Of a DNA stretch of 64,000 nt, positions 1,779-20,630 are shown one piece after another. The notes under the pieces are model-generated. The model made no database searches, was not told the DNA's origin, and was given only the letters and a program-made list of their open reading frames with translations. The DNA is from Candidatus Freyarchaeum deiterrae (GTDB taxonomy: Archaea > Asgardarchaeota > Jordiarchaeia > Jordiarchaeales > Jordiarchaeaceae): the NCBI GenBank assembly GCA_037305845.1, contig CP147778.1, positions 64,001-128,000 of the forward strand, written 5' to 3'. Each line of letters starts with the position of its first letter. The stretch's first letter is position 1. Both the position numbers and the translations under genes were made by a program.

Positions 1779-2832
1779 TCTGGTTGTCTCCTCCTCCGCC
1801 TGTGGTTCCCCACCATTCGAAGGTGTAGGGGGTGTAGCTCTGAGCTTTTCCTAGGAGGTAGCGTGCGATTTCTCTTGCCTGGTGGAATATCATGTTTTCG
1901 AGGGGTGCTTTTCCTTCGTCTGGTTTCGCCTCGCTTTCCAGTCGGCTGAGTATGGCTTCTATGTACTTTTTCTTAGCATCATCACTGAACAACAGTCTTC
2001 CTTCGGTGTGTTCAAAGTCTTTTGGGGTTAGTGTTCCCTGTGTGAACATGCTTACGGCGGTTCTGTCTACGAGTGGTTGTCTGAATTCTTCTGAGAGGTC
2101 TAGTACTAGGGATGCTTTTCCTGAGCGGTCTGCGTGTAGGAATCCGGCGAATGGTTCCAGTCCGCATGCGGTTACCGCTGCGAGTACTCTGGAGTTGAGT
2201 ATGGTGTATCCTAGGCTGAGTGCTGAGTTGAAGGGGTCTCTGGGTGGTCTTTTCTCTCTTCTCTGGAATCTTATTTCTTCGGGTAGGATTAGTCTTAGGG
2301 CTTGGTAGTATATGCGGGTGGCTTCTGCTTCTAGTCCCATTATCTCGTATCGTTTTTCGGTGATCAGTCCATTATTTATTTCGCTGAGTTTTTCTTGTAC
2401 TCTTTTTATTTCTTGGGTGGCTGCTTCTAGGTGGTCTGCTAGTGTGGGGTCGGTGCGTTTTCTGCTGTTTGCGAAGTAGTTGATTAGTCGGTGCTTGTTG
2501 GTCATTCCGGCGTCCACGAATGTTTTGGCTAGGTGGGTTCCCCTGTGGTCGCCGTAGGCGGTTATCTGTTCTCTGCGTGTGAGTACTGTGCCGTGCATGA
2601 AGAAGCCGTGGAGGAGGGCTATGGGTTTGCCGCCTCCCATGAAGAGTACTGGTACGCCGTTTTCTGCTAGGAGTTTGACGGCTTCGGAGGAGATGCTGGC
2701 GGAGGCGGATACTATGATTTCGGAGAGCTTGACCACGGGTACCTCTTGGAGTTTTTCGCCTCTGCAGGTGATTTTGATGGCTTGCCCCTTTTTTCCTATG
2801 AAGGTTCCGTGGCTGCTTATTTCGATTAGCAT
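1771..2832 (-). CDS. cas1: CRISPR-associated integrase Cas1
   Basis: Catalytic motifs GLEAEATRIYY, NSALSLGY, GFLH and DLSEEFR. Confidence 0.98.
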   Translation of the reverse strand: MLIEISSHGTFIGKKGQAIKITCRGEKLQEVPVVKLSEIIVSASASISSEAVKLLAENGVPVLFMGGGKPIALLHGFFMHGTVLTRREQITAYGDHRGTHLAKTFVDAGMTNKHRLINYFANSRKRTDPTLADHLEAATQEIKRVQEKLSEINNGLITEKRYEIMGLEAEATRIYYQALRLILPEEIRFQRREKRPPRDPFNSALSLGYTILNSRVLAAVTACGLEPFAGFLHADRSGKASLVLDLSEEFRQPLVDRTAVSMFTQGTLTPKDFEHTEGRLLFSDDAKKKYIEAILSRLESEAKPDEGKAPLENMIFHQAREIARYLLGKAQSYTPYTFEWWGTTGGGGDNQND

Positions 2833-2838
2833 TTTTTA

Positions 2839-3738
2839 TTAGTCCTCCTCGCAGATTATCCCTCTCCCCCTCGCAGAGTGAAGGTCGTGGGCAATAAGTT
2901 GGCCGTTAGATTGAAAGTATAGGATGTTTCCTCTCACGTAGACTACTCTTCCGAGCAGGTCTTCGATCTGCCAGGCGTTCACATCTACCGGGAGTTCTGG
3001 ATGTACACCGTAAACTTGGCTTAGGTCGAGTGTGCATACTTCGTGTAGGTCGAATTTTTTTGTGGTTTCTTGGCTTAGCTTTTTTAGCTCTTCGATTTTT
3101 GGGCCTTTTGGGTGGGCGAATTCTTCGGCTTTGTATTCGAATCTTACTCTGGTTTCGAGTCCTAGGGAATCTGCTATGAGTTGTTCTGTTTCTTGGGCGG
3201 TGGTGAGGTTTAGGTTTCCTCTGAGGACTGTGGCGCAGTCTGCTCCCTGTTCTATTAGTCGGTACTTATAACCGTCGGGGGTGCTCCATCTTTCCGCCCG
3301 GGTTACTCCCACTTTGAAGAGTTCTCCGAAGCCCGCTAGATATACTACGTGTTCGTCTCCGCAGTATTGGGCGGCCCAGGGTGAGTCGCATGGTGGGTTG
3401 CTGGGGTTGCAGTGTTGATTGTATGGTGTGCCTGCGCCTTTTGTTACGCATTCAAATCTCTGCACGTTGACGAGACTTGCGCACTCGTCGCAGTACTGAG
3501 CATCTCCAATTGTGGGGTTGAGGCATTCTAGGCAGTATTGTTCTCTGGTGAGCATGAGGGCGTGTTCTCCGAAGAGTGGAGCGCTTCCCAGTCCTAGGGG
3601 TGATAGGATGTCTATGTGCGGTAGGTAGAATCCTAGGAAGGGTCGCCAGCTGTATCCTCTCATTACGAATTGGATATCCTCTTGGAGGATTATTTCTTTA
3701 GTTTGGGGAAATACTATTTGTTGTGAGATTGCTACCAT
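2839..3738 (-). CDS. DUF2797-family protein (Cys-rich, GIY-YIG-like core), first gene of the cas1 operon
   Basis: CxxC...CxxC, further Cys cluster, then HVVYLA...KVGVT...RLIEQGA; ends 6 nt before the cas1 start. Confidence 0.8.
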   Translation of the reverse strand: MVAISQQIVFPQTKEIILQEDIQFVMRGYSWRPFLGFYLPHIDILSPLGLGSAPLFGEHALMLTREQYCLECLNPTIGDAQYCDECASLVNVQRFECVTKGAGTPYNQHCNPSNPPCDSPWAAQYCGDEHVVYLAGFGELFKVGVTRAERWSTPDGYKYRLIEQGADCATVLRGNLNLTTAQETEQLIADSLGLETRVRFEYKAEEFAHPKGPKIEELKKLSQETTKKFDLHEVCTLDLSQVYGVHPELPVDVNAWQIEDLLGRVVYVRGNILYFQSNGQLIAHDLHSARGRGIICEED

Positions 3739-4027
3739 CTACTTTTTTCCTCCATTTTTTCTCTCGCAAGGACCTTTCTGTCTATATAATCTCTTTGGAA
3801 ACATATAAACATTTTGGAAATATATTTCTATAATTCACTTATAATTCTAAAAATAACCAAAAAAACAGCTTAACAAAAAGAAAAATGAAACACACCACAA
3901 AACACCCACCCCAAACCTTCCCAAAAAATCCCTTCGATGATATATTTCCATTCTAAGGGTTCATTGGGATGATTACAGGGCAGGTTCTAGCTCCATAACG
4001 TTTTTAAATTTCCAATACAATTGCCAT

Positions 4028-4306
4028 TTGGTGGCTTACTTGGTGATACTGGATAAGTCTGGTAGGGTACTACTCCCTAAAGAGATTAGGGACAAGCTGG
4101 GTCTTAGTGAGGGGACACCTCTAGAGGTAACCGTCAGAGGTAGCGAGATTGTGATTAGGCCCTATGATAAGGGACTGGAGGAGCGGGTTGAAGAAGCGGT
4201 AAAATTTCTGTCTGAGAACGCTCCTAGAGCCTTTGTGACGCAGGAAGAGGGAGATAAGTGGTTCTCAAGAGAGTACTGCCTGAGAAAGATAGGGTTGAAG
4301 GAATAG
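4028..4306 (+). CDS. AbrB/MazE-type antitoxin
   Basis: LDKSGRVLLPKEIRDKLGL swapped-hairpin motif. Confidence 0.9.
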   Translation: MVAYLVILDKSGRVLLPKEIRDKLGLSEGTPLEVTVRGSEIVIRPYDKGLEERVEEAVKFLSENAPRAFVTQEEGDKWFSREYCLRKIGLKE

Positions 4307-4758
4307 TTGATGTTGGGGTGCTTGTTATTGCCCACTTCGAAAACCCTGCTAATAAACAAGCACTAAAATTCATTGGGGACGTTCTACTCTGGAAGCGGAG
4401 GTGTCTAGTTCCGACTTCAACTCTCCTAGGTGCATACCATATCCTCACAAGCTACCTAGGTGTTGAAAGAGACTTGGCTTGTAACGCTCTTTCCAAAACG
4501 TTAAAAACACTTTCTCCAGCTTTCTACGAAGATATCACCATAGAACTAGCCTCTGAAGCAATAATAAATGCCACGAGTTACAAGATAGCCTCTTGGGACG
4601 GATACATTATAAGCCTCGCAAGAAGGTATAACGCCCCAATAATATATACTATCGATAGTAAGCTAGCTAGCAAAGTAAAGGACATTCAGATTATTAATCC
4701 AATCCCGGAAGAAACTTTCAAAAAATATAACGAGTGGCTGGAAAGTAAATTAACGTAA
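4258..4758 (+). CDS. PIN-domain (VapC-like) toxin, apparently intact
   Basis: IVDVGV...SWDGYII...IYTID; overlaps the antitoxin. Confidence 0.85.
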   Translation: MVLKRVLPEKDRVEGIVDVGVLVIAHFENPANKQALKFIGDVLLWKRRCLVPTSTLLGAYHILTSYLGVERDLACNALSKTLKTLSPAFYEDITIELASEAIINATSYKIASWDGYIISLARRYNAPIIYTIDSKLASKVKDIQIINPIPEETFKKYNEWLESKLT

Positions 4759-4893
4759 AAGAACACCTGCTAACGCTGAATAGCAGACTAACCCAAAAGA
4801 AGAACCACATGGAAACCTACATCGCTTCATTCGATTGACGCGAAATCTTTATTTGTTTCGATGTGTACGGGTTTTATTCGGTGATTCTGGCAT

Positions 4894-5127
4894 ATGGTTG
4901 TAAGTCGAGTGGGTTCGAAGGGAGAACTTTTCCTCCCAAAGGATGTAAGGGAGAAACTTGGGCTTAAACCTAACATGAGGGTGCTTTATAAAGTTGAAGG
5001 GGGAAGATTGTTGGTGGAGCCGGTTCCAAGCCTTGAAGAAGTATTTGAGGAACCTCAGCCTGTTGAGTTAACCTTGGAAGAGTTTCACGAATTTAGAAGA
5101 AAGCTTTCTCGAGAGTCTGAGACTTGA
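4894..5127 (+). CDS. AbrB/MazE-type antitoxin
   Basis: VGSKGELFLPKDVREKLGL. Confidence 0.9.
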   Translation: MVVSRVGSKGELFLPKDVREKLGLKPNMRVLYKVEGGRLLVEPVPSLEEVFEEPQPVELTLEEFHEFRRKLSRESET

Positions 5128-5597
5128 GACTTCTGCTTGACACAACTTATTTCCTTCCCGCTATAGGGATCTCTATTAAGAGTTTGGTAGGGAATGCGGT
5201 AATTAAACTGATTTCAGAAGGACAACGGATTCTGATGAGTGAGGTAACCATCTTTGAACTATCCGCTAAGGGAGGCAAGCAAGTAGCCACTAGGAATCTT
5301 GAAGCTGAGAGAGTGGTGAAAGGAATAAGAGCTATTATATATGATGGGCGTATTGAGAGGATTCCTGTACATGATGCATCAATTCTGCTAACTGCGTTCA
5401 AGCTTAGAGAGGTATTAGATGATTTTATTGACTGCATAATCCTTTCATCGGGCATTAACTAAGCTGACGTGCTGATAACTGAGGATAAGGACATCCAAAA
5501 CCTGATGGAGGGAGGAGGGTTTCAAGAGCTCATAGCGGCAATAAATCCTACATTCACAATCAAACCATTAGCAAATGTACTAAAGCCTCATACATAA
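5124..5597 (+). pseudogene. PIN toxin with an internal TAA
   Basis: LLDTTYFLP...DFIDCII, then stop at 5460-5462; the frame continues ADVLITED (last PIN acidic motif) to TAA at 5597. Confidence 0.85.
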
Positions 5598-6009
5598 CGA
5601 ACCAGCTTACAGCGAAGAGCGGAATTGGAAGTTATTACTGGCTTATTTGTCGCATTTCCTTCTTATGGTTACCCAATAGGTCTACGATAATCAACATTCT
5701 CGGTAGACTGCTCTACAGCAAATGAGTACTCGTCCCAAAATTCAAACCACTGGAAAACCAGAACGAAAACCTAACCAACGAGATAGAGTTTCTAATAAAA
5801 TACCCCAGAGAAACCGCATCAGGCAGGACAGGAATCACGGGTGAAAAATGTTTCGTAGCCAGTGCTTTAATAATTCACATCAAACATGGTATCACTAAAC
5901 ACGCTAAATTACAAAACCCTTCCCCAGATCGTATGATTCTCCATTGGTCAAAAATAATATTGTAAAACTTAATAATGTTGGAAAACTATAGTGATTCTGG
6001 TAAATTGAA

Positions 6010-6255
6010 ATGTCTGAAGAAGTTTCAATTGTTGGAAAAAAATTCATTGTTGTAATACCGAAGAATATTCGGAAGACGCTAGGTATCAAGGAAGGTCAGA
6101 AGATAAGATTCAAAGTTGAGCAAGGCAAAATACACTTAGAACCAATAATTGACCCCTTCGAACTGGCCATTAAAGGATCAAAATTCGCTGAAATAACAGT
6201 TGAAGAATTTGAATCCGAATCCGAGGAAATGCAGAATGAATTCTTCAAGGATTAA
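6010..6255 (+). CDS. AbrB/MazE-type antitoxin
   Basis: VGKKFIVVIPKNIRKTLGI. Confidence 0.9.
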   Translation: MSEEVSIVGKKFIVVIPKNIRKTLGIKEGQKIRFKVEQGKIHLEPIIDPFELAIKGSKFAEITVEEFESESEEMQNEFFKD

Positions 6256-6688
6256 AGTACTTCTCGACACCACGTATCTGCTACTTTTTTTGGGCGTGAG
6301 TTAAAGGAAGTCGAAAGTGTTTTAGAAAAGCTTAATCCTTTACCAAGGCGGTAAGATTGAGCCGAACTACTCGCCGTTCAGCCTACTTGAAGCCTTAGGC
6401 AAAATGTCAAAAACACAATTTGACGAAGAAAAACTCAAAAACGGATTAATTTCAATTCTCGAATCAAAAGCATTCGCAGAAGTCTTACCAACATACGACG
6501 GCTACCTAAAAGCCCTAAAACTAAAAGCAGAAGGATTCAAAGACTTTGTCAATCTCTTACTAAACGAAATAGCTACCACAAGAGGCTTAAGGTTGCTAAC
6601 AAGAGACCGTGAAATCATAAAATTCGTACAACCGATGGGATATGGGTTGCTTTTTATCTTTCTATTTCTTCTTTCAGCTTGTTTATAA
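6236..6688 (+). pseudogene. Frameshifted PIN toxin
   Basis: ATG 6236 gives MNSSRIKVLLDTTYLL, then a stop after a poly-T run; the C-terminal part (FKDFVNLL...LLTRD) is in the ORF at 6404. Confidence 0.8.
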
Positions 6689-7043
6689 TTTCTTCTGCTG
6701 CTTCCAGCATTTCTTCCACTTCTTCTTTTGAGTGGGGGGTAATGGGTCCTGGAGGATAACGCTCGTCATAATAGAATACATTTAGTTTTCTGCCTAGATC
6801 AAGATATTTTTGAAAGGCAACATCAAAATTTGTAGCCTTGGTTATGAGTGATTCTAGGTCGTGTATCTTCTTTAATTTCCAGCCCTTATGGATAAGATAA
6901 GCCTTTAGGTATTTCTCAATGGCTTGATGGATATGAAAAACCGCTACATCAAAATACTTGCTGTCCCTTAGAATTTTTGCGGCGTCTAGGTCATGTTTTC
7001 CTCTTTCCATCCATTCCTTAACTATCTGCTCCTTCGCTTTCAT
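6654..7043 (-). CDS. HEPN-domain protein (MNT-HEPN TA toxin)
   Basis: FHIHQAIEKYLKA, KIHDL, RYP. Confidence 0.9.
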   Translation of the reverse strand: MKAKEQIVKEWMERGKHDLDAAKILRDSKYFDVAVFHIHQAIEKYLKAYLIHKGWKLKKIHDLESLITKATNFDVAFQKYLDLGRKLNVFYYDERYPPGPITPHSKEEVEEMLEAAEEIINKLKEEIER

Positions 7044-7359
7044 ATAGGACTACCCCCTTTTGGATTATCTCCTCTACGAAATCGTCTCCTATTCTGAGGC
7101 GTTCCTCCAGTTCCTCAGGAGTATACACTAAGGGGGATACAGGTATTTCGCGGTTAGGATTGTAAATTATCCTTTTAACGTGTACGACTCTGTCCACTCT
7201 TCTCTCATTAGTTTTTTTCAAAATCAAAAGGTCTATGTCGCTATCTTCTTTAGGATTGCCGTAAGCGTAGGAGCCGAATAGAATAATTTTCAGGGGCTTG
7301 TATTCGTTTTTCAGCTTTTCAACAATCTCGGATAGTATTGCTTTTATCTCTACTTCCAT
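7018..7359 (-). CDS. Minimal nucleotidyltransferase (MNT antitoxin)
   Basis: LFGSYAYG...SDIDLLI. Confidence 0.92.
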   Translation of the reverse strand: MEVEIKAILSEIVEKLKNEYKPLKIILFGSYAYGNPKEDSDIDLLILKKTNERRVDRVVHVKRIIYNPNREIPVSPLVYTPEELEERLRIGDDFVEEIIQKGVVLYESEGADS

Positions 7360-7479
7360 CTTTTACCTTCCTCTAGCTTGTATTCTCTATATATTTATAC
7401 GCTTTTAAATTATAAACACTCTCTAATAATATTAATTACAGGAGATTAACGGGTGTAGGTAAAACTCTGGAAGCAGATA

Positions 7480-7512
7480 CTTTCAACCCTCGTTACTGAG
7501 GAGCTTCTTTTG
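7480..7512 (-). repeat. Orphan CRISPR repeat, reverse orientation
   Basis: ctttcaaccctcgttactgaggagcttcttttg matches the reverse complement of the array repeat at 31 of 33 nt. Confidence 0.9.
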
Positions 7513-7548
7513 ACTCATAGATGCCAATTCCTTGATAGGTTAAGAGTA

Positions 7549-7815
7549 CTACGTCAAAATCTTTAAACCAAACTCTGAAAAACCTTTCAAAATGCTTTAA
7601 ATAAAGTGTGTAGAATTAGGTCTTTTGCGATTGCAATTGATGCGATTAGAAAATTTGCGTCTTCAATAGGTTCACCTTTTCTTTTAACGTGTTGTAAAGC
7701 TTACAATAAACCAATAGGAATATTGTGCAAAGGTAGCTATTTCCTAATAACTCAAGCTTTTTGGTTCTTGAGTATTCCACAAGAACGGAGGTGTCAACAA
7801 GTACTCTCTCTGAAC
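7549..7815 (-). pseudogene. Degraded PIN toxin
   Basis: VLVDTSVLVEY N-terminus; LIASIAIAKDLILHT and KHFERF lie in other frames; internally shortened. Confidence 0.7.
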
Positions 7816-7994
7816 TTGAAGGACTTCCTGAAGCTTTCGGCTTCCTTTTTGAGCTCATCCCAATCGACGCCCTCCACCAGCTCATAGAATTCTTTAAACT
7901 TCTTCTTTTTCTTTAGGTAATTCCGAATTAGCTCCTTAATCTCTTCTTCGGTAACAACATCCGGAACATCAATAACAATTTTTATCCGATTCAC
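7794..7994 (-). CDS. Small putative antitoxin
   Basis: 66 aa, charged, overlaps the start of the PIN remnant. Confidence 0.65.
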   Translation of the reverse strand: MNRIKIVIDVPDVVTEEEIKELIRNYLKKKKKFKEFYELVEGVDWDELKKEAESFRKSFKFRESTC

Positions 7995-8011
7995 ACTCGT
8001 CTAGGAAACTT

Positions 8012-8638
8012 TTATTTCTCCAGTTTCAGCCATATTTCCTCATCTGGGTTATAGCTCCAATTTTTGTAAATGTCCTTCTTGAAGACTTTTAACAGTAGAG
8101 CGATTCCTGCACTGTCGAAGAGAACATCATATCCTTCCAGAATTCCAAAAATTAGGGAGGATTCCAAGTTAAGCATGGCAATGAATCCTTTGAGGGTAAT
8201 GGAATTTATCTCAAAGGCTACCCCATACTTTATGGAAATTTGGTATTCGTCGTCGGCAAGACTCAACGGATTTTCAGAAATAACTAGGAGATCTACATCG
8301 CTTTCCTCATGTGTTTTTCCTTTGGCTACGCTTCCGTAAAGCAGGACGCCTAAGACTTCGGGGTGTTTTTCCACGATTTCATAAGCCGCTATCCAAGCGA
8401 TTTCCTTTAAAGAGGCTACCAGAATACTACGTAACTTATCCCGGTCAATCTGATAGCCGTTGCCACTGATCCTTACTACGCCTAGTCGAAGGAGCTGTTT
8501 TAGTTTTATCGATAGCCATCTCTCGCTTAGACCCGTTTCTCTAAATAGTTCTGAGAAGGACTTTTCTCCATTCGATAAAGCGTGTATAATTCTTCCTTCG
8601 GGTGTGAGTGTGAATAGCTTAAGCACTTGCTTTCTCAT
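8012..8638 (-). CDS. wHTH + nucleotidyltransferase (MNT) fusion
   Basis: KSFSELFRETGLSERWLSIKLKQL HTH, then LYGSVAKG...SDVDLL. Confidence 0.85.
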   Translation of the reverse strand: MRKQVLKLFTLTPEGRIIHALSNGEKSFSELFRETGLSERWLSIKLKQLLRLGVVRISGNGYQIDRDKLRSILVASLKEIAWIAAYEIVEKHPEVLGVLLYGSVAKGKTHEESDVDLLVISENPLSLADDEYQISIKYGVAFEINSITLKGFIAMLNLESSLIFGILEGYDVLFDSAGIALLLKVFKKDIYKNWSYNPDEEIWLKLEK

Positions 8639-9120
8639 AGTATATCAATTACGAGATTTTGGATTTTAAATTTACTAAGTATAGAAACTTTATCAAGTAC
8701 ATATAATCTTTCAACCAATAAAGGATAGTCAGAATACTGTCACAAGAGTGGAAGCAGTCCATCTAGGGTTGCTAAGGAAGTTGAAGACGCCACCCACCTC
8801 AGCACCTCTAACATCACTAGGCGGCCTAGAGTCCACATACACCTTTTCCAGCTCTTGGAGGTGATGTACACCAAGAGGAGGGGGAGAACAAACTTGAGGA
8901 CTCTTCTTGTGCTTTAGTTGATGGTGGTAGGGTTTCTGCTTACTGTTTCCTTAGGGGGGAGGTGTTAACTTTCCTCAAGTCGAGGATGGAAGTCCTCCAC
9001 GCATAAAGCATACCCTTCCCATAAACCAAAAAACATACATATTACATTGCGCCGTCGATTGTCGATTTACTGTTTTCTGTGCGTTAGGTTTTTTAGTTTA
9101 GGTGGAGAAGTATAGTTACG

Positions 9121-9285
9121 GTGGCTTTTATGGAGGAGCTTGAGCGTCTGCTCAAGGAGAAAATGAAGATTCTTAAACCCAACGAGTGCGCCGTAATTTA
9201 CGACGACGAGAGAGGACTTCTTATCAGTGTTTGTAATGAGGAAGGGAAGATAAAAATAGTTTCAAAAAAGGTAGATGAACTTTAA
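9121..9285 (+). CDS. Small hypothetical protein (54 aa)
   Basis: Hand-translated: (V)AFMEELERLLKEKMKILKPNECAVIYDDERGLLISVCNEEGKIKIVSKKVDEL. Confidence 0.5.
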   Translation: MAFMEELERLLKEKMKILKPNECAVIYDDERGLLISVCNEEGKIKIVSKKVDEL

Positions 9286-9698
9286 TGATCCTCATTTCCT
9301 CAACCAGACCTAACTACTTTTACTCAGCTAAAAGACACATACTGATAGTAGTCTCGAATCCAACAAGCTTAGAGAGCAGAGTCTTAGGTATTAGAGAACT
9401 CTTAAATTTTGAGGACAGGGAGCTAGCTGAGGCGGCTAGAAGGGTTCTTGAAGCCGCCCTAGAGAAAATAGTTGAACTCGGGGTTCCCTTCATTCTGAGA
9501 GAGATTGGAGTGGAGGTAGATTTTGAGGATCCTTTATGGAGCTACACAGTGTTAACACTGGAAGTGTTTGTTGGGGAGGATCTGTTTGAAACTTTGAGAG
9601 AGAGCGCTGTGAATGCTGCTTACTCTGGTTTAGAGCCTGAAAAAGCTTCGCGGGTGCTGCTGGATGTTCGGCCCTATAGAGTTTCTGAAACCGGCTGA
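9285..9698 (+). CDS. Hypothetical protein, probable partner of the downstream HEPN
   Basis: Overlaps the HEPN gene; acidic alpha/beta composition. Confidence 0.5.
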   Translation: MILISSTRPNYFYSAKRHILIVVSNPTSLESRVLGIRELLNFEDRELAEAARRVLEAALEKIVELGVPFILREIGVEVDFEDPLWSYTVLTLEVFVGEDLFETLRESAVNAAYSGLEPEKASRVLLDVRPYRVSETG

Positions 9699-9975
9699 AA
9701 AACTGTTAACGTATGACGAGGCAAAAATCAGAACCGCTATTAGTAGGTCTTATTATGCTTCCTTCCTCTACGTGAGGGAAGTTGCTGGTTTAGGAGGATT
9801 AAAGATGCCAAGAGTCCGCAGAGAAGCGGTCCGATTTCTCTATGGGAGGAGACCGTTTGCCGAAAACACCCTCCACCTACTAAGGCAGCGTAGAAACGAT
9901 GCAGACTACGATTTAAAATGTGTATTTTCCATATCCGAAGCAAAGCTATCAGTCAACTACGCGAAAAAATTATAG
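9664..9975 (+). CDS. HEPN-domain protein (UPF0332-like)
   Basis: RTAISRSYYASF...RRNDADYD. Confidence 0.8.
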   Translation: MFGPIEFLKPAEKLLTYDEAKIRTAISRSYYASFLYVREVAGLGGLKMPRVRREAVRFLYGRRPFAENTLHLLRQRRNDADYDLKCVFSISEAKLSVNYAKKL

Positions 9976-10138
9976 GCAGCATATAATTCATCGAGTTAAT
10001 TGGAACTTTTACGAGGGGAAAGGATTCGAAAGGAGTGAAATTAGTTTTGGCTCATAATTTATTGGTGGAGAGTCGAGTTTGCTACAAAAATGTGGGCCTT
10101 TTTACTCGTGGTGGTTTCAGCCGGGTTTTCACAAAGAG

Positions 10139-10564
10139 TTACGGGCAGTGGTTTTCCACGAATTCGTTTAGCTTAGCAACTTTCAATTCGTTCACGTTTT
10201 TCCACTCTTTTTCGTACTGTTTCTCTCCTCCAGTAACCAGAACATCCGACTCTGTGGCGATGGCTGTTGAAAGGATTACGGCATCGGCTAGAGAGAAGCG
10301 GTACTTGGTCTTTAGGAGACCGGCTTTGAAGGCTACTCCTAACGTTAAGGGATTCTGTATCAGAGGGACGCTGTTTATGTAGGCAAACTGAATGCGAGCT
10401 TCTTTATCTCCGTAAAGCCGGCTTATTACGTTAACTAGTTCAGCCATCGTAATAACACTTATATGGGTTTCAAAAAGAGTTTTTGCGGCTTCAAGAACCC
10501 TTTCAGCATAGTTGTTCTCTTTATACTTCTCCACCAAAACCCATGTGTCTAGAAAAACTCTCAC
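10139..10564 (-). CDS. PIN-domain (VapC) toxin, apparently intact
   Basis: VFLDTW, TMAEL, SLADAVIL, LVTG. Confidence 0.9.
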   Translation of the reverse strand: MRVFLDTWVLVEKYKENNYAERVLEAAKTLFETHISVITMAELVNVISRLYGDKEARIQFAYINSVPLIQNPLTLGVAFKAGLLKTKYRFSLADAVILSTAIATESDVLVTGGEKQYEKEWKNVNELKVAKLNEFVENHCP

Positions 10565-10827
10565 TGTGACAACTCCTTGGAAAAGCCTTCGGCACGCTTC
10601 TCTTCTTTTCTTCTCTCTTCTTCCAGTAGCCCTTCCAATCTTTCGGCTCTCGGCAGTCTCATAGCTTTAACAACATCATCGGGAAGGGGGATAACAAGGA
10701 TTGTGCCGTCTGGTAAGGCTTCAACTCTTAGGCGCTGCCCTACTTTTAATCCAAGCTTCTCCCTTACTCCCTTGGGGATTATCATCTGCCCCTTAGAGGA
10801 AAGCACTACATCAGTCATTCTTACCAT
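10561..10827 (-). CDS. AbrB/MazE-type antitoxin
   Basis: LSSKGQMIIPKGVREKLGL; start shortened relative to the ORF track. Confidence 0.88.
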   Translation of the reverse strand: MVRMTDVVLSSKGQMIIPKGVREKLGLKVGQRLRVEALPDGTILVIPLPDDVVKAMRLPRAERLEGLLEEERRKEEKRAEGFSKELSQ

Positions 10828-11114
10828 CAACAAAAATGTAAGAAAAAAAGAATATAAGTCTTTCCAACCCACTTTTTCCCAGAATTGTGAACTTTTTGAT
10901 ATTTAGGGGTTCAACTGGGTGGACAGAATCAGTCGATAACGCCTCTTTTTTAGGGCTTCAAAGCGCGAAAAAAACTATACGAACGCTTCTTTTCGATACT
11001 CGTCAAAACTATTCTTCACCACTCCGCACAGCTTACCATAATAACTCGAAAATAACCATAAAAGAAACAAACTGTCCAAAACTGAATGAGGTAGTCGAAG
11101 AAGAAGGTAAAGCG

Positions 11115-11229: not shown

Positions 11230-12792
11230 TTAATAGATGAGCTTTGTTCCCGTTCCTCCGTGTTGTGTGCGTCTAATTCTTATTTCGGTCACTATGGGGT
11301 GCTGGGTAGCTACTCCTGAGGCTATGGCTATACCGTTGGGCAGAAGCGGTATACGTCCAATGTCATCCGTACTTGAATAGTCGAGGTAGGGTTTGAGGTA
11401 TTCCAGGTCGTAGTTTCCTTCTATGCGTAGTATTATTTTTGTTCCACACTGGCTTAAAATGTCTTTGTCCAATCCAGCGATTCTCTGACTGGTGATACAC
11501 AGTCCTAATCCGAACTTTCTTCCCTCGCGGGCTATTTTGCGCATCTGTCTCCTGCTGTAAGTGTTAGTTTCCTGGGGTGCGAAGCGGTGGCTCTCCTCCA
11601 CCACCACTAGTGCGGGCGGAATGGTGCCTCTTTTTCGGGCTTGGAAGACTTTTTGGAGCGCGACGCCTGCAATTATTCTTCTTACCCTCTCGTCCATGTC
11701 TTCGCTCAAATCGATTATGCTTAGAACCCCGGGTTTGACGATGTCGCTAGTGTTGAAGCCTTCTCCAAATATGCCCAGCTCTCTCAGAACCATTATCCTC
11801 CTCACTGTTGAGAGGACTGTGTTTTTCTGAAATTTCCACTCTTCAGCCGCATCCTCCACTGCCTCAGTTAGAGTTTCGGGGTCGTAGGATTGCTTATCCA
11901 CACTCAGCCTCTTCATTGCTAGGAAGAGGAGGTCGGACTGGACATCACTCATTCCGCAGATTTCGCTTATGGCGTAGGCGTCCAAATCACTCATATTTAT
12001 GGTGAGTTCGCTTCCACCGTTTTTGCCCAAGCCTTTGGGAAAATAGCTGACCGCCCTGTAGCCCTTGGGGGTAATCCCAAACTCTGGGGAGCGTTCAATC
12101 TCCTCCGGATTCTTGTTCGGCTGCCTGAATGTGTTGTACTCTCCGTGGGGGTCGATAACCAGTACTGGAAGATTCTTCTCCAAGAGTTCCTCTATGAGCA
12201 CTCCCACCGCGTAGGATTTTCCGCTTCCAGTGGCTCCCAAAACGGCTACATGGTGTCTCACCAGCTTATCGGGATCCAACAATACCTTTATAGCGTTGTT
12301 TCCCCTCATCAAACCGATGTAGAGTCCGTCGCTGGGCAATCCCAAAAAGCGGTTGAGCAGTTTGGTATCCGCTCGGTAAACGATGTTGCCAGGCTCTGGA
12401 GCGTCCTCCGGGGGAAGTATTCTCTCGTTCTTAACTAGTCCCACCACTTTGACTCGTGCCACTCTCCATCTGCTGGACCTCGTGGGGAATCTTGAGTCTA
12501 CTGTTATTCCGCGGGTAATGTGATACTTAACAAATTCGGGATCCGTGTAGTACTCGTTGTAAGCTTGAATGGTGGAAACTCGGCCTACGAGTACACTGAG
12601 CCCCAGGGGCACCTCAACGTATTCCCCTACCTTTACTTCGGATTCCTCCGCTATTTGAAAATTAAAATTCAGGTGATTAGGAGTGTTTCCCTCACAGATG
12701 ATGACTCCCAAATCCGACTTGTTTTCCCCCTTAGGGGTATGGTTTTCATTTTCACTACTCTTTCTTTGCATCCTCTTTTTTCCTCCCTGCAC
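11230..12792 (-). CDS. HerA-family ATPase/helicase (HAS barrel + FtsK/HerA motor)
   Basis: GATGSGKS, IDPHGEY, EESHRFAP, REGRKFG, SQR. Confidence 0.93.
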   Translation of the reverse strand: MQGGKKRMQRKSSENENHTPKGENKSDLGVIICEGNTPNHLNFNFQIAEESEVKVGEYVEVPLGLSVLVGRVSTIQAYNEYYTDPEFVKYHITRGITVDSRFPTRSSRWRVARVKVVGLVKNERILPPEDAPEPGNIVYRADTKLLNRFLGLPSDGLYIGLMRGNNAIKVLLDPDKLVRHHVAVLGATGSGKSYAVGVLIEELLEKNLPVLVIDPHGEYNTFRQPNKNPEEIERSPEFGITPKGYRAVSYFPKGLGKNGGSELTINMSDLDAYAISEICGMSDVQSDLLFLAMKRLSVDKQSYDPETLTEAVEDAAEEWKFQKNTVLSTVRRIMVLRELGIFGEGFNTSDIVKPGVLSIIDLSEDMDERVRRIIAGVALQKVFQARKRGTIPPALVVVEESHRFAPQETNTYSRRQMRKIAREGRKFGLGLCITSQRIAGLDKDILSQCGTKIILRIEGNYDLEYLKPYLDYSSTDDIGRIPLLPNGIAIASGVATQHPIVTEIRIRRTQHGGTGTKLIY

Positions 12793-14784: not shown

Positions 14785-17700
14785 CTTGCAAAAGAAGTTC
14801 CTCAGTAACGAGGATTGAAAGTACCACGTATTCGGAGCATAGTTAGCATTATAACCGCTTGCAAAAGAAGTTCCTCAGTAACGAGGATTGAAAGAAAAAT
14901 TGGATGAAGTGCTAGTCGAAATTGAATTAATACTTGCAAAAGAAGTTCCTCAGTAACGAGGATTGAAAGTAATATCCTTCTACAGCACCATAAGGTGTGA
15001 TATTTCCTTGCAAAAGAAGTTCCTCAGTAACGAGGATTGAAAGATGACTGAGTAGTAGAGCAACTGCATCTCGTTGTTACTTGCAAAAGAAGTTCCTCAG
15101 TAACGAGGATTGAAAGGAACCTCTCCGCTCCAAACCCAAAAAGTAGCTGAAACCACTTGCAAAAGAAGTTCCTCAGTAACGAGGATTGAAAGAAGGATAA
15201 AACTGCAATAAAAGAGGAAATGATTAACTTGCAAAAGAAGTTCCTCAGTAACGAGGATTGAAAGAACAAAAGAAAAGATACATATTCGTTAAAGGCAGCA
15301 ACTTGCAAAAGAAGTTCCTCAGTAACGAGGATTGAAAGTTCCCCGACGATGCGACTGAAAGCCGAACATTAACACATCTTGCAAAAGAAGTTCCTCAGTA
15401 ACGAGGATTGAAAGCAAGAAACAGACCTTGTAGATTCATGGATACTTATCCCTTGCAAAAGAAGTTCCTCAGTAACGAGGATTGAAAGTATTTTAAGGTT
15501 CGAACGCAGGGACCGGAGCGTGTTCCTCTTGCAAAAGAAGTTCCTCAGTAACGAGGATTGAAAGGTCAAGGTAAGTTCTAGGATTCTTACTGGTGAAAAG
15601 CTTGCAAAAGAAGTTCCTCAGTAACGAGGATTGAAAGACAGAAAAAAAAGAGATTATTTTATGAACTCCTAAAACTTGCAAAAGAAGTTCCTCAGTAACG
15701 AGGATTGAAAGGACCTAAAAGGTAGGTCTAAAATCTTGATCAAAAACGTCTTGCAAAAGAAGTTCCTCAGTAACGAGGATTGAAAGTATTATTCTACATA
15801 TATATGACCTAACGTAATACAGCTTGCAAAAGAAGTTCCTCAGTAACGAGGATTGAAAGTTTACGATATTCAAACTAAACGATTTAGGAAATCCAACTTG
15901 CAAAAGAAGTTCCTCAGTAACGAGGATTGAAAGTATCTTTTCTAAATCTTCCCTCTTAAAAAAGGGCTTAAACCTTGCAAAAGAAGTTCCTCAGTAACGA
16001 GGATTGAAAGGATCCCAGCCCGCGCTGAAAAGCACTAAATAGAATATTACTTGCAAAAGAAGTTCCTCAGTAACGAGGATTGAAAGTAATAGACTTTGAT
16101 TAGGAATTAGATTATTTAAGCTAGGACTTGCAAAAGAAGTTCCTCAGTAACGAGGATTGAAAGCCTTTCAGGAGATTAGACCCAACCGAAAGCATTGAGC
16201 GGGGCTTGCAAAAGAAGTTCCTCAGTAACGAGGATTGAAAGGAATAGAGCGGTTAGGACTCCGCCTGCAATTCCCAGCTTGCAAAAGAAGTTCCTCAGTA
16301 ACGAGGATTGAAAGTAGCCCCGATACCGCAGGTGAGACCGCAAGAGTCGAACTTGCAAAAGAAGTTCCTCAGTAACGAGGATTGAAAGTCAACGTTTTCT
16401 TACAATTCAAACCTTCTCTATCACAACTTGCAAAAGAAGTTCCTCAGTAACGAGGATTGAAAGTTCCGAGTAACACCACCAGTTATCGCAAAATGATTCT
16501 TGTCTTGCAAAAGAAGTTCCTCAGTAACGAGGATTGAAAGAACTTTAACTCGATTAGAGATCCAAGGGACCCAGTTCCTTGCAAAAGAAGTTCCTCAGTA
16601 ACGAGGATTGAAAGTGGTGGCGACAAGTCTCACCGCAGAAACTGTTCGGAAACTTGCAAAAGAAGTTCCTCAGTAACGAGGATTGAAAGTATCTAATGCG
16701 TCAAATCCACCTAAAACAAATTCTAACTTGCAAAAGAAGTTCCTCAGTAACGAGGATTGAAAGTCTCAGCCGAATGCGTGGGATTTAATAACGAAGAAGA
16801 AACTTGCAAAAGAAGTTCCTCAGTAACGAGGATTGAAAGATTTAACAGAAACGATGAAGCAAAAGCGTACATTAACTTGCAAAAGAAGTTCCTCAGTAAC
16901 GAGGATTGAAAGTCATCGGTTAGTGAGATTACTAGTTATTTAGATTTTGCTTGCAAAAGAAGTTCCTCAGTAACGAGGATTGAAAGGAGAAGTCTTTATG
17001 CTTCCTGATCCAAACTACTTTTTACTTGCAAAAGAAGTTCCTCAGTAACGAGGATTGAAAGTCTTCTCCAGCTTCAGCGCAAACGCGGTTTTATGGAGCA
17101 CTTGCAAAAGAAGTTCCTCAGTAACGAGGATTGAAAGACGAATAATAGGAGATGAGAAACGTGAGCAGAATAGCTTGCAAAAGAAGTTCCTCAGTAACGA
17201 GGATTGAAAGTCATCTCGATAAGCTCCTTTAATGAATTGATACTTCACTTGCAAAAGAAGTTCCTCAGTAACGAGGATTGAAAGTTAGAGGATGTAGCAA
17301 TCAAGAAGACCCTCAGTAAACTTGCAAAAGAAGTTCCTCAGTAACGAGGATTGAAAGCAAAAAATGCGATAATAATGAAGCTGTTTCTAAAACTCTTGCA
17401 AAAGAAGTTCCTCAGTAACGAGGATTGAAAGAATTATTAGAATTAGGAGCAAAAACAACCTGTCCCGACTTGCAAAAGAAGTTCCTCAGTAACGAGGATT
17501 GAAAGGTAATGAGACAATAAACTTGGAGATTTACGATAAAGCTTGCAAAAGAAGTTCCTCAGTAACGAGGATTGAAAGTCACATCCTCCTCACCCTCATC
17601 CGCCCCACAGTACCCGCCTTGCAAAAGAAGTTCCTCAGTAACGAGGATTGAAAGTAAAAACAGAGGAACTTTTGAAGCCTCTGCTTGTTGAAACTTGCAA

Positions 17701-20630
17701 AAGAAGTTCCTCAGTAACGAGGATTGAAAGTTTATGTTGGGAATATTCACTCGTAAACCTAAAAGAAACTTGCAAAAGAAGTTCCTCAGTAACGAGGATT
17801 GAAAGACATGTCACCGGAACAGTACGCCGGAAAAGAGAGCGCTTGCAAAAGAAGTTCCTCAGTAACGAGGATTGAAAGTCCTTCTCCTTTTCTGGGTCCT
17901 TGTACATTTTCTTGCTTGCAAAAGAAGTTCCTCAGTAACGAGGATTGAAAGGGTATGATTGTGGAGCGGGTTATGGATGAGCGGGGACTTGCAAAAGAAG
18001 TTCCTCAGTAACGAGGATTGAAAGCTGTATAGAAGTAGCTTGTATATTGCGCCACATACCTGAACTTGCAAAAGAAGTTCCTCAGTAACGAGGATTGAAA
18101 GCAAAATAGGCGCCCTAAAATCACAACTCAGTTTTTAACTTGCAAAAGAAGTTCCTCAGTAACGAGGATTGAAAGTTAATTCGCTTAGTTGACAGATATA
18201 GACGTGTTTATCTTGCAAAAGAAGTTCCTCAGTAACGAGGATTGAAAGGGTATTCCAACCGCATATACTATCTCCGTTAAGTTCACTTGCAAAAGAAGTT
18301 CCTCAGTAACGAGGATTGAAAGTAACCAAGAATGTTCCGGTGAGTGATATTCAATCATTCTTGCAAAAGAAGTTCCTCAGTAACGAGGATTGAAAGTACA
18401 CGTACCAAGTGGAACCCAGAAACAGGAGCAGAAGCTTGCAAAAGAAGTTCCTCAGTAACGAGGATTGAAAGGGATTAGCTCCGCTAAGAGTATCTGAGTA
18501 TTACACACCACTTGCAAAAGAAGTTCCTCAGTAACGAGGATTGAAAGTGTTCCATTAAAATCACCAAGAATAAAAGAACAAATAGCTTGCAAAAGAAGTT
18601 CCTCAGTAACGAGGATTGAAAGTAATTTCTTTCATATTTTTCACCATTTTCTTTTTTTAACTTGCAAAAGAAGTTCCTCAGTAACGAGGATTGAAAGAGA
18701 AACGAGTTGAACAGATCGCAACTAGAAGCCCTCACTTGCAAAAGAAGTTCCTCAGTAACGAGGATTGAAAGTTCTTTTTGAAAAATATCCCACGAATCTT
18801 TATCTGATGCTTGCAAAAGAAGTTCCTCAGTAACGAGGATTGAAAGTGTTGTTTCTCTAAGTATTCTATACGGTTTTTTAATCTTGCAAAAGAAGTTCCT
18901 CAGTAACGAGGATTGAAAGTGTTATGCTGATTTCCTTTATATGGCAACAAAAATAGCTTGCAAAAGAAGTTCCTCAGTAACGAGGATTGAAAGAATAGGT
19001 CATGGGTACACCTTAAATAAAGGTGTACTCTTCTTGCAAAAGAAGTTCCTCAGTAACGAGGATTGAAAGACTACTAGACCACGAAATAATCTACAAGGAC
19101 AAACAACTTGCAAAAGAAGTTCCTCAGTAACGAGGATTGAAAGAAAGAAATTGATGTGAAGGAAAGAATCAAGGAATGCACTTGCAAAAGAAGTTCCTCA
19201 GTAACGAGGATTGAAAGGTTTGGGGGCTGATTAATACCGCAACATTTCTAGTGGGCTTGCAAAAGAAGTTCCTCAGTAACGAGGATTGAAAGGATTCTTG
19301 GACATTCCAAGCGGGATGGAACATGACAAGCTCTTGCAAAAGAAGTTCCTCAGTAACGAGGATTGAAAGATGCCTATAATTACGAAGACTAAAATAAGAC
19401 TTAAGATACTTGCAAAAGAAGTTCCTCAGTAACGAGGATTGAAAGATTTACTTCTGGTTCTTTGTAGTAGGTTACAGAGTTGTACTTGCAAAAGCAGTTC
19501 CTCAGTAACGAGGATTGAAAGTAGTAAATTGGTTTTTTCTCAATCTCATTATATTTCAACTTGCAAAAGAAGTTCCTCAGTAACGAGGATTGAAAGACTC
19601 CGTGCCCTATTCCCCACGGTGGATCCGTTGCACAACTTGCAAAAGAAGTTCCTCAGTAACGAGGATTGAAAGACGGTGAACGGTCACAGTCCCTCGACCG
19701 CTGTTCAGGTCTTGCAAAAGAAGTTCCTCAGTAACGAGGATTGAAAGCATAAGACTACCCATAAGATTCTCGCTAACACTAGACACTTGCAAAAGAAGTT
19801 CCTCAGTAACGAGGATTGAAAGTAATGGACCAATCTGTTCTTTGAGAGAATTTAGTAACTTGCAAAAGAAGTTCCTCAGTAACGAGGATTGAAAGCTTTT
19901 CTTTCACGAAACGTACTTGATTCTACGTAATAGCTTGCAAAAGAAGTTCCTCAGTAACGAGGATTGAAAGTTGCGCTTTTAATGCAGGATAAAAGGGATT
20001 TGACTACTTGCAAAAGAAGTTCCTCAGTAACGAGGATTGAAAGGATCCTCCGTGACTATGTGTTTGAATTTTTCTTTCTGCCTTGCAAAAGAAGTTCCTC
20101 AGTAACGAGGATTGAAAGGTTAAATGCTCTTGACGATTCATCGTGGGGTGCTTGGGCTTGCAAAAGAAGTTCCTCAGTAACGAGGATTGAAAGTCAAGTC
20201 AATCTTGGAGCTTCAAGGATTTGAATTACTCTTGCAAAAGAAGTTCCTCAGTAACGAGGATTGAAAGTCAGGGTTATCGAACTGAAGGTCCTTGCAGACC
20301 TCCTTGCAAAAGAAGTTCCTCAGTAACGAGGATTGAAAGTCCAACTGCGGCAGCTTGTTCGTGGCCATAATTATTTCTTGCAAAAGAAGTTCCTCAGTAA
20401 CGAGGATTGAAAGATTTTCTTCGTTATGCAGTTGAAGAACATGGAGTGAGTCTTGCAAAAGAAGTTCCTCAGTAACGAGGATTGAAAGTGTACCTATTAC
20501 GCGTGGGAGGGATGCTTTTTGGGACTTGCAAAAGAAGTTCCTCAGTAACGAGGATTGAAAGTATATTTTCATCCTCCTATTCGGTTCTTAAATATTCGCA
20601 CTTGCAAAAGAAGTTCCTCAGAAACGAGGA
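14785..20630 (+). CRISPR. CRISPR array; repeat CTTGCAAAAGAAGTTCCTCAGTAACGAGGATTGAAAG (37 bp); about 78 full repeats plus 1 truncated; spacers about 35-41 bp
   Basis: Period about 74.5 bp; TCCTC/GAGGA hairpin and ATTGAAAG 3' end; one variant at 19485; last repeat (20601) has the GAAAC variant and stops at nt 30. Counted by hand. Confidence 0.99.

Follow-up and report, generated by a model that had tools for sequence, protein, structure and literature searches.

A gene of the DUF2797 family stands at the head of the cas1-cas2-cas4 spacer adaptation cassette in a 64,000-nucleotide (nt) stretch of the genome of the Asgard archaeon Candidatus Freyarchaeum deiterrae (contig CP147778.1, positions 64,001 to 128,000; hereafter the window). 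This gene is very probably a genuine adaptation-linked cas accessory gene. Somewhat favored, in our assessment, is the fuller reading in which it encodes a cas1-linked DUF2797 protein of the type catalogued as UAS-13, which would serve as an accessory GIY-YIG-like endonuclease of spacer acquisition in a CRISPR (clustered regularly interspaced short palindromic repeats) system. The elements of this reading that are directly supported are the gene order, the conservation of the linkage, the separate clade formed by the cas1-linked proteins, the parallel between their phylogeny and that of Cas1, and the set of conserved residues.

The making and trimming of prespacers differ between CRISPR types and are only partly understood in archaea. 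As a conserved and tightly coupled fourth gene of the cassette, with an apparently intact nuclease-type site and a position in which it alternates with Csa1, the DUF2797 gene offers a testable candidate for a prespacer-processing enzyme. If the proposal is true, this protein would be the first GIY-YIG-type nuclease in CRISPR adaptation, and the whole DUF2797 family, which comprises more than 1,000 representative clusters from bacteria and archaea, would be given its first function. The link to cas1 was already known from a published catalogue (the UAS-13 entry), and the idea of the fold from a preprint. The present analysis adds the phylogenetic separation, the Cas1 co-phylogeny, the finding that DUF2797 and Csa1 alternate, and the examination of conserved residues.

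Linkage of DUF2797 to cas1

The DUF2797 open reading frame (ORF; 2839-3738) runs uninterrupted from an ATG start codon to a TAA stop codon and encodes 299 amino acids (aa). Its product matches the Pfam model PF10977 (DUF2797) over residues 61-278 with an E-value of 6.7e-14 and a score of 52.7 bits, well above the curated cut-off of 25, and so belongs to the family to which it had been assigned. A scan of the 299-aa protein against NCBIfam gave no match. This ORF is the only DUF2797 copy in the 3.58-Mb, single-contig genome. Its stop codon (2841-2839) is followed by the spacer TAAAAA (2838-2833) and then by the cas1 ATG at 2832, which leaves a gap of 6 nt. The initial annotation had described the gene as lying 6 nt from cas1 on the same strand, heading the cas1-cas2-cas4 operon and resembling cas1 in composition, and the positions and base counts agree with this description. 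The same-strand cassette is tightly packed, with overlaps of 8 nt between cas1 and cas2 and of 1 nt between cas2 and cas4, and cas4 is separated from cas8b by 201 nt (Table 1). The G+C content is 0.50-0.53 in the DUF2797 ORF and 0.46-0.48 in cas1, as against 0.30-0.42 in the flanks. Beyond the window start, cas8b is followed by cas7, cas5, and cas3 (locus L026, G000:C1:50001-64000), and the locus is therefore assigned to type I-B.

The last DUF2797 codons contain a Shine-Dalgarno-like sequence, GAGGAGG, whose placement ahead of cas1 suggests coupled translation of the two genes. Because this element and the 6-nt gap point in the same direction, the two genes probably share one transcript as well. 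A block of the form GGAAATATATTTCC-N-AAATGTTTATAT, located ∼65-90 nt before the DUF2797 ATG, is invariant in six congeneric species, whereas the intergenic DNA around it diverges. The perfect palindrome GGAAATATATTTCC reads AGAAATATATTTCC in the window, at 3816-3829, beside a TATA-like box (3803-3809), and the block (3803-3829) is found once in the 3.58-Mb genome. The transcription start predicted from this box would lie ∼25 nt downstream from it. As judged from sequence, the block is a candidate operator plus archaeal promoter/TATA box, and the palindrome is a candidate binding site for a regulator of the adaptation cassette.

The linkage to cas1 is not unique to this genome, a point on which the initial annotation had staked its proposal. 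A first search found homologues in 20 of 60 relatives, and tblastn with the Cas proteins of this genome located cas1-cas2-cas4 directly 3' of the gene in five genomes of the same genus, in four of the same order, and in several other Asgard families. A profile built from 18 cas1-linked DUF2797 proteins (A1) was run over 400 Asgard genomes. The score distribution was bimodal, with at least 160 bits at 41 places (in 38 genomes) and 94 bits or less for all other matches. The flanks of the 41 high scorers and of 24 sampled low scorers were annotated with profiles made from the Cas proteins of this genome. Thirty-nine of the 41 high scorers lie immediately 5' of cas1-cas2(-cas4) on the same strand. 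Of the other two, one is cut at a contig end and one sits in an unusual locus (G059). No cas gene was found within ∼4 kb of any of the 24 sampled low-scoring paralogues. This result is not circular, because more than 20 of the cas1-linked loci contributed nothing to the profile. Across 38 distinct loci, the median interval between the DUF2797 stop codon and the predicted start of cas1 is 0.5 nt, and 35 of these intervals fall between -16 and +28 nt; in several loci, the four-gene cassette alone is conserved. Cas1 was detected in 96 of the 400 genomes, and thus ∼40% of the sampled cas1-bearing Asgard genomes carry a cas1-linked DUF2797 gene. A tblastn search of plasmids returned three ordinary DUF2797 genes.

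Phylogenetic analysis identified the cas1-linked clade for which the initial annotation had proposed to look. In a FastTree phylogeny of 213 DUF2797 members (65 whose genomic context was known, plus 148 representatives drawn from a search of 1.84 billion proteins), one branch with support of 100 splits all cas1-linked from all non-cas proteins. In an IQ-TREE phylogeny of 105 rows (LG+C20 with posterior mean site frequencies), the context label changes only once, and the separating branch has a Shimodaira-Hasegawa-like approximate likelihood ratio test (SH-aLRT) value of 99. The conserved linkage and the separate clade rule out a chance adjacency of a housekeeping DUF2797 gene to cas1. The non-cas paralogue has conserved neighbors of its own. 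On the same strand, a radical-SAM protein and a weakly matching winged-helix protein of ∼300 aa each occur in 15 of the 24 sampled loci (L084-L103 among them), and a transglutaminase-like gene occurs on the opposite strand in 13 of the 24. This setting hints that the non-cas paralogue has a housekeeping role unrelated to CRISPR.

In a separate FastTree phylogeny, 84 Cas1 proteins were labelled according to the gene that precedes cas1; the unlinked ones among them were chosen from the top of the score list. Of the 38 Cas1 proteins linked to DUF2797, 30 group in a single clade (SH support 94). The Cas1 proteins preceded by Csa1 form their own clade (SH support 89), and those from cas3-cas4-cas1-cas2 loci form another. 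The order Csa1-cas1-cas2-cas4 occurs in seven sampled Asgard loci, six of them called with PF06023 (E-values of 1e-74 to 1e-78) and the seventh (G313) with a profile made from those six. G006, a relative from the same order with a DUF2797 module, contributes one of the seven as its second adaptation module. The leading position in otherwise equivalent cassettes is thus taken by either Csa1 or DUF2797, two nuclease-type genes that are unrelated to each other. Csa1, a Cas4-family protein of the PD-(D/E)XK type, has the same position and orientation as DUF2797 at the head of cas1-cas2-cas4, and both are small, Cys-containing, nuclease-type proteins. However, they are unrelated in fold and family, and they are attached to different Cas1 clades. 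The DUF2797 protein has no match to PF06023, PF01930, PF12705, or PD-(D/E)XK models. The resemblance is one of position only.

Several loci depart from these arrangements. Three of them carry Cys-rich ORFs of 460-571 aa directly 5' of cas1-cas2-cas4 (L155, G298:C17; L156, G173:C191; L170, G207:C22), and the Cas1 proteins of these loci branch within the DUF2797-linked Cas1 clade. The three enlarged proteins match the profile only at positions 14-108, which cover the N-terminal strands and the Zn ribbon, and not at the nuclease-like core. Four loci of family f14 (L034, G059:C8; L050, G024:C129; L073, G101:C56; L024, G043:C173) have a second, very divergent cas1 that faces away from DUF2797, and in the f14 cassettes the Cas1 downstream from DUF2797 sits on a very long branch. 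At G059, DUF2797 is followed by a 950-aa ORF that has no Pfam match and is touched only by the home-built Cas1 profile. The loci of family f7 (L160-L164, L169) have a conserved ORF of 270-280 aa after cas1-cas2-cas4, and their Cas1 clade is sister to the Csa1-linked clade.

DUF2797 was said in the initial annotation not to be a recognized Cas family. This is correct for the formal classification, but the family is listed in a catalogue of CRISPR-linked systems as UAS-13, "Acquisition (DUF2797)," with six loci and the gene name uas13A (Altae-Tran et al. 2023, Science; PMC10910872, supplement). Both there and here, DUF2797 is linked to a cas adaptation module. The 70-aa core of uas13A, which is a fragment only, is 34% identical to the protein of the window (E-value 6e-10) and 57% identical to the clade member L015 from the G013 locus (E-value 4e-28). 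By sequence comparison, the ORF belongs to the cas1-linked subfamily catalogued as UAS-13. The catalogue entry differs in that it comes without fold assignment, phylogeny, or experiment, and the gene described here is a Jordarchaeia-like orthologue, ∼22%-34% identical to the uas13A branch, in a complete type I-B locus. A second entry of the same catalogue, UAS-44, "Acquisition (DUF2797 large zinc finger protein)" (PMC10910872), also has a Cys-rich gene directly 5' of cas1. The three enlarged ORFs described above, matched to it by description only, are probably UAS-44. Unlike these ORFs of 460-571 aa, which do not match the profile at the core, the protein of the window is the short form with its core intact.

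Predicted fold and conserved residues

An AlphaFold2 model based on a 116-sequence alignment has a predicted local distance difference test score of 92.4 and a predicted template modeling score of 0.88. The architecture predicted by this model is a split beta-barrel with an insertion, which consists of a Zn ribbon, a second Cys cluster, and a GIY-YIG-like domain (Table 1). Several Cys clusters and metal binding had been proposed from the first inspection, and two four-Cys clusters are indeed present. The residues C69, C72, C83, and C86 of the ribbon are invariant in alignments of 116 and 33 sequences and occur in 95%-98% of the members of both clades. Those of the second cluster (C97, C110, C117, and C126) are invariant in the 18 A1 sequences and occur in 91%-92% of the rows on the cas side and in 75%-84% of those on the other side. 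This conservation is consistent with metal binding. The motif VYLA...KVGVT...R, which had suggested GIY-YIG nucleases at the outset, is also found, as VVYLAGFGELFKVGVTR...R160.

Residues 130-192 of the model form a beta-beta-alpha-beta-alpha unit, followed by further helices. This unit resembles the core arrangement of GIY-YIG enzymes, among them I-TevI, the UvrC N-terminal domain, Slx1, HIGLE, and Hpy188I. In a VIA exhaustive structural search, the top rows were GIY-YIG nucleases aligned on residues 127-243, with Z scores of 4.9 for HIGLE, 4.5 and 4.1 for two entries of Slx1, 4.1 for I-TevI, 3.8 for UvrC, and 3.5 for PD-T4-3. The search covered 48,161 chains, and it is hard to put down to chance that six of the 14 top-ranked ones are such enzymes. 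The first aligned residues pair position 129 of the model with residue 2 of I-TevI, and position 128 with residue 14 of UvrC. If the first strand aligns without gaps, Y133 would fall on the GIY tyrosines of these enzymes, Y6 in I-TevI and Y19 in UvrC. A GIY-YIG-like fold in DUF2797 has been proposed independently in a 2026 preprint, which also reported no Foldseek match in the Protein Data Bank (PDB).

The residues expected of such a site are strongly conserved. DUF2797 proteins share with GIY-YIG enzymes a conserved Tyr in the first strand and a conserved Gly in the second, as well as the Lys seen in Hpy188I. Their conserved Arg and Glu, placed by the model in two successive helices, would correspond to the helix-1 Arg and the metal-binding helix-2 Glu of those enzymes. 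Across the 213 family members, Y133 (213/213) and G144 are present in 100%, K142, R160, and E185 in 96%-100%, and K203 in 90%-95%. In the model, R160 lies in a helix spanning residues 157-163 and E185 in a helix spanning 178-192.

Several observations weigh against a catalytic GIY-YIG assignment. All of the Z scores are less than 5, below the level that is safe for inferring a shared arrangement, and the GIY-YIG fold is therefore a supported lead and not a proof. Foldseek gave no match in the PDB at an E-value of 0.001 or better, and a profile search of PDB sequences with DUF2797 returned nothing relevant. The Pfam GIY-YIG model (PF01541) gave no match at an E-value of 0.01 or less. Comparisons by hhalign with Asgard UvrC N-terminal and small GIY-YIG domains gave a P-value of 0.002 and a probability of only 12%-15%, with a different register in the first strand. 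The strand-2 motif is K142-V-G144, in which the Gly is invariant and the Tyr of YIG is replaced by Lys, and no counterpart of the family Asn was identified in DUF2797. The split beta-barrel that houses the core, with Zn-binding elements to either side, is also absent from the GIY-YIG structures listed above. Members of the non-cas clade conserve these residues just as well, which argues for an activity of the family rather than for a CRISPR-specific one. Finally, the enlarged relatives that have no nuclease-like core suggest that the part of DUF2797 relevant to cas1 may be noncatalytic. One of these points is less damaging than it appears. Hpy188I is an active GIY-YIG enzyme with a natural Lys in place of the YIG Tyr, and this Lys contacts the scissile phosphate (PMC3045582, PMC2630997). 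Because of this precedent, the replacement does not by itself exclude membership in the GIY-YIG family or activity.

Possible roles in spacer acquisition

The mechanism we envisage begins with the DUF2797 gene as the first cistron of a transcript that probably also carries cas1-cas2-cas4 and would start at the conserved upstream TATA/palindrome promoter. Translation of DUF2797 would be coupled to that of cas1. The protein would then assist Cas1-Cas2-Cas4 in spacer acquisition as an accessory endonuclease that generates or trims prespacer DNA, a task that presumably falls to the PD-(D/E)XK nuclease Csa1 in the same gene slot of related cassettes. If DUF2797 uses the one-metal chemistry of GIY-YIG enzymes, which leaves a 5'-phosphate on the product (PMC3045582), then the product would have a free 3'-OH, the end required by Cas1 for integration.

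The components of this proposal differ in strength. We lean slightly toward the view that the DUF2797 protein is a catalytically active nuclease. Its more specific role in prespacer generation or trimming can be put forward only tentatively. Similarly speculative is the most explicit version of the idea, in which the cas1-linked DUF2797 proteins would be active one-metal GIY-YIG-type endonucleases, would serve as a fourth subunit or helper of Asgard Cas1-Cas2-Cas4 that makes integration-ready prespacers, and would have displaced Csa1 in one Cas1 lineage.

An unlikely but substantial alternative is that DUF2797 is a noncatalytic adaptor or DNA-binding protein. The Zn ribbon and barrel could bind DNA or Cas1-Cas2 and in this way hold prespacers, for example, or bring the integrase to the leader-repeat junction, with the core serving only as a scaffold or nucleic-acid-binding surface. 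The barrel has a weak likeness to Tudor, Sm, and OB folds, and the enlarged relatives found 5' of cas1 in the same Cas1 clade retain only the N-terminal and Zn-ribbon similarity. The loss of the YIG tyrosine would also fit such a role, although the Lys at this position is compatible with catalysis in Hpy188I. More difficult to reconcile with an adaptor is the near-universal retention of Y133, K142, G144, R160, and E185 in both clades, a pattern expected of a preserved active site, and the occupation of the same slot in sister loci by a true nuclease family, Csa1. It is quite improbable that DUF2797 is instead a regulator or safeguard, either as a Zn-ribbon protein that controls how the cassette is transcribed or as a toxin-like nuclease by which the locus is stabilized. 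A conserved palindromic, operator-like site does precede DUF2797 as the first gene, and toxin-antitoxin pairs crowd the DNA that separates the cassette from the array. However, the protein has no helix-turn-helix or other known regulator domain, and the non-cas clade is single-copy in many Asgard genomes, where its conserved neighbors (radical SAM, winged-helix, and transglutaminase-like) are unrelated, a setting at odds with a toxin. The coupling is tight specifically to cas1 and not to the effector genes, and it persists in the loci that conserve only the four-gene cassette.

The initial annotation had a different partner in mind. It suggested that DUF2797 supplies the activity that a "dead" NurA encoded nearby would lack, which would make DUF2797 the nuclease of a HerA-driven processing of DNA ends that feeds Cas1. 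We consider this very improbable. The 491-aa protein in question has a NurA fold (Table 1) and no Pfam NurA match, and HerA accompanies its gene in each of 11 loci. In canonical NurA, the first catalytic Asp occupies the position before the conserved Gly-Ser, and the corresponding residue is Asp in none of 14 homologues, which would favor the idea. Yet the other acidic and His residues are invariant, and for this reason the protein is not established as dead. The genomic distribution is similarly mixed. The pair occurs in 20 of the 400 Asgard genomes, and 13 of these 20 also carry cas-linked DUF2797, so that the co-occurrence looked for by the initial annotation is only partial. Of the 38 genomes with the cas-linked gene, 25 have no match to the NurA-like protein at an E-value of 1e-10 or better, and the pair is present in seven genomes that lack cas-linked DUF2797. 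In six genomes from five families (G000, G002, G004, G036, G047, and G125), the pair lies no more than 12 kb from the DUF2797 cassette, but in three relatives from the same order (G006, G007, and G009) there is no cas gene within ∼6 kb of it. Moreover, the overlap comes largely from one genus and one order, and the counts are not independent. The two systems may cooperate in some lineages, but an obligate partnership of DUF2797 with NurA-HerA is not supported by these data.

Surroundings of the cassette

The cassette and its neighbors in the window are collected in Table 1. The HerA and NurA-like genes overlap and adjoin the CRISPR array, which lies ∼11 kb from the adaptation cassette. This pair resembles UAS-26 of the published catalogue, a CRISPR-linked module of DUF87 and NurA (Altae-Tran et al. 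2023; PMC10910872). Between the cas operon and HerA, positions 4028-10872 form a dense island of toxin-antitoxin-type genes.

Table 1. Features of the adaptation cassette and its surroundings, with positions in the window
Feature	Position	Strand	Evidence or remark
cas8b (TM1802 family), 5' part, runs off the window start	1-696	minus	PF09484, E 6e-41
cas4	898-1500	minus	PF01930, E 1.1e-16; TIGR00372, E 3.2e-32
cas2	1500-1778	minus	PF09827, E 3.2e-17
cas1	1771-2832	minus	PF01867, E 3.8e-80; TIGR00287, E 1.6e-80
DUF2797 gene, first cistron of the adaptation cassette	2839-3738	minus	299 aa; ORF list, translation, Pfam
GAGGAGG, Shine-Dalgarno-like, in last DUF2797 codons	2844-2850	minus	12-18 nt before cas1 ATG; read from sequence
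C-terminal beta strands, aa 232-295, with conserved G263 and G270	2854-3045	minus	model, alignments
GIY-YIG-like core, aa 127-230 (Y133, K142, G144, R160, E185, K203)	3049-3360	minus	model, structural search, conservation
Second four-Cys cluster (C97, C110, C117, C126)	3361-3450	minus	alignments
Zn-ribbon-like CxxC...CxxC (C69, C72, C83, C86)	3481-3534	minus	alignments
N-terminal beta strands, aa 22-68	3535-3675	minus	pack with C-terminal strands into a small beta-barrel in the model
Palindrome (A/G)GAAATATATTTCC, then TATA-like TTTATAT	3803-3829	minus	invariant in six species of the genus; putative function
AbrB/MazE-like + PIN	4028-4758		
MazE-like + PIN	4894-5462		
HEPN	6654-7043		
Nucleotidyltransferase, with the preceding HEPN	7018-7359		
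Helix-turn-helix-nucleotidyltransferase	8012-8638		
Weak HEPN	9664-9975		
MazE-like + PIN	10139-10872		
HerA, overlaps NurA-like gene	11230-12792	minus	DUF87, E 5e-35
Winged-helix + NurA-fold protein, 491 aa	12755-14230	minus	Foldseek vs Sulfolobus NurA 2ygk, E 1.8e-8
CRISPR array, 37-nt repeat (CTTGCAAAAGAAGTTCCTCAGTAACGAGGATTGAAAG), unit ∼74 nt	14851-20562		Tandem Repeats Finder

Two further ORF groups were noted beyond the window start, in L026. A 302-aa ORF that follows cas7-cas5-cas3 (L026:7740-8648, minus strand) has no Pfam match and is possibly a divergent cas6. The opposite strand carries a type III-like set, with RAMP proteins at 4775-7114 and a 935-aa ORF at 2010-4817. Elsewhere in the window, tandem repeats occur at 29433-29661, with 2.5 copies of a 93-nt period, and at 52254-52995, with 2.8 copies of a 264-nt period.

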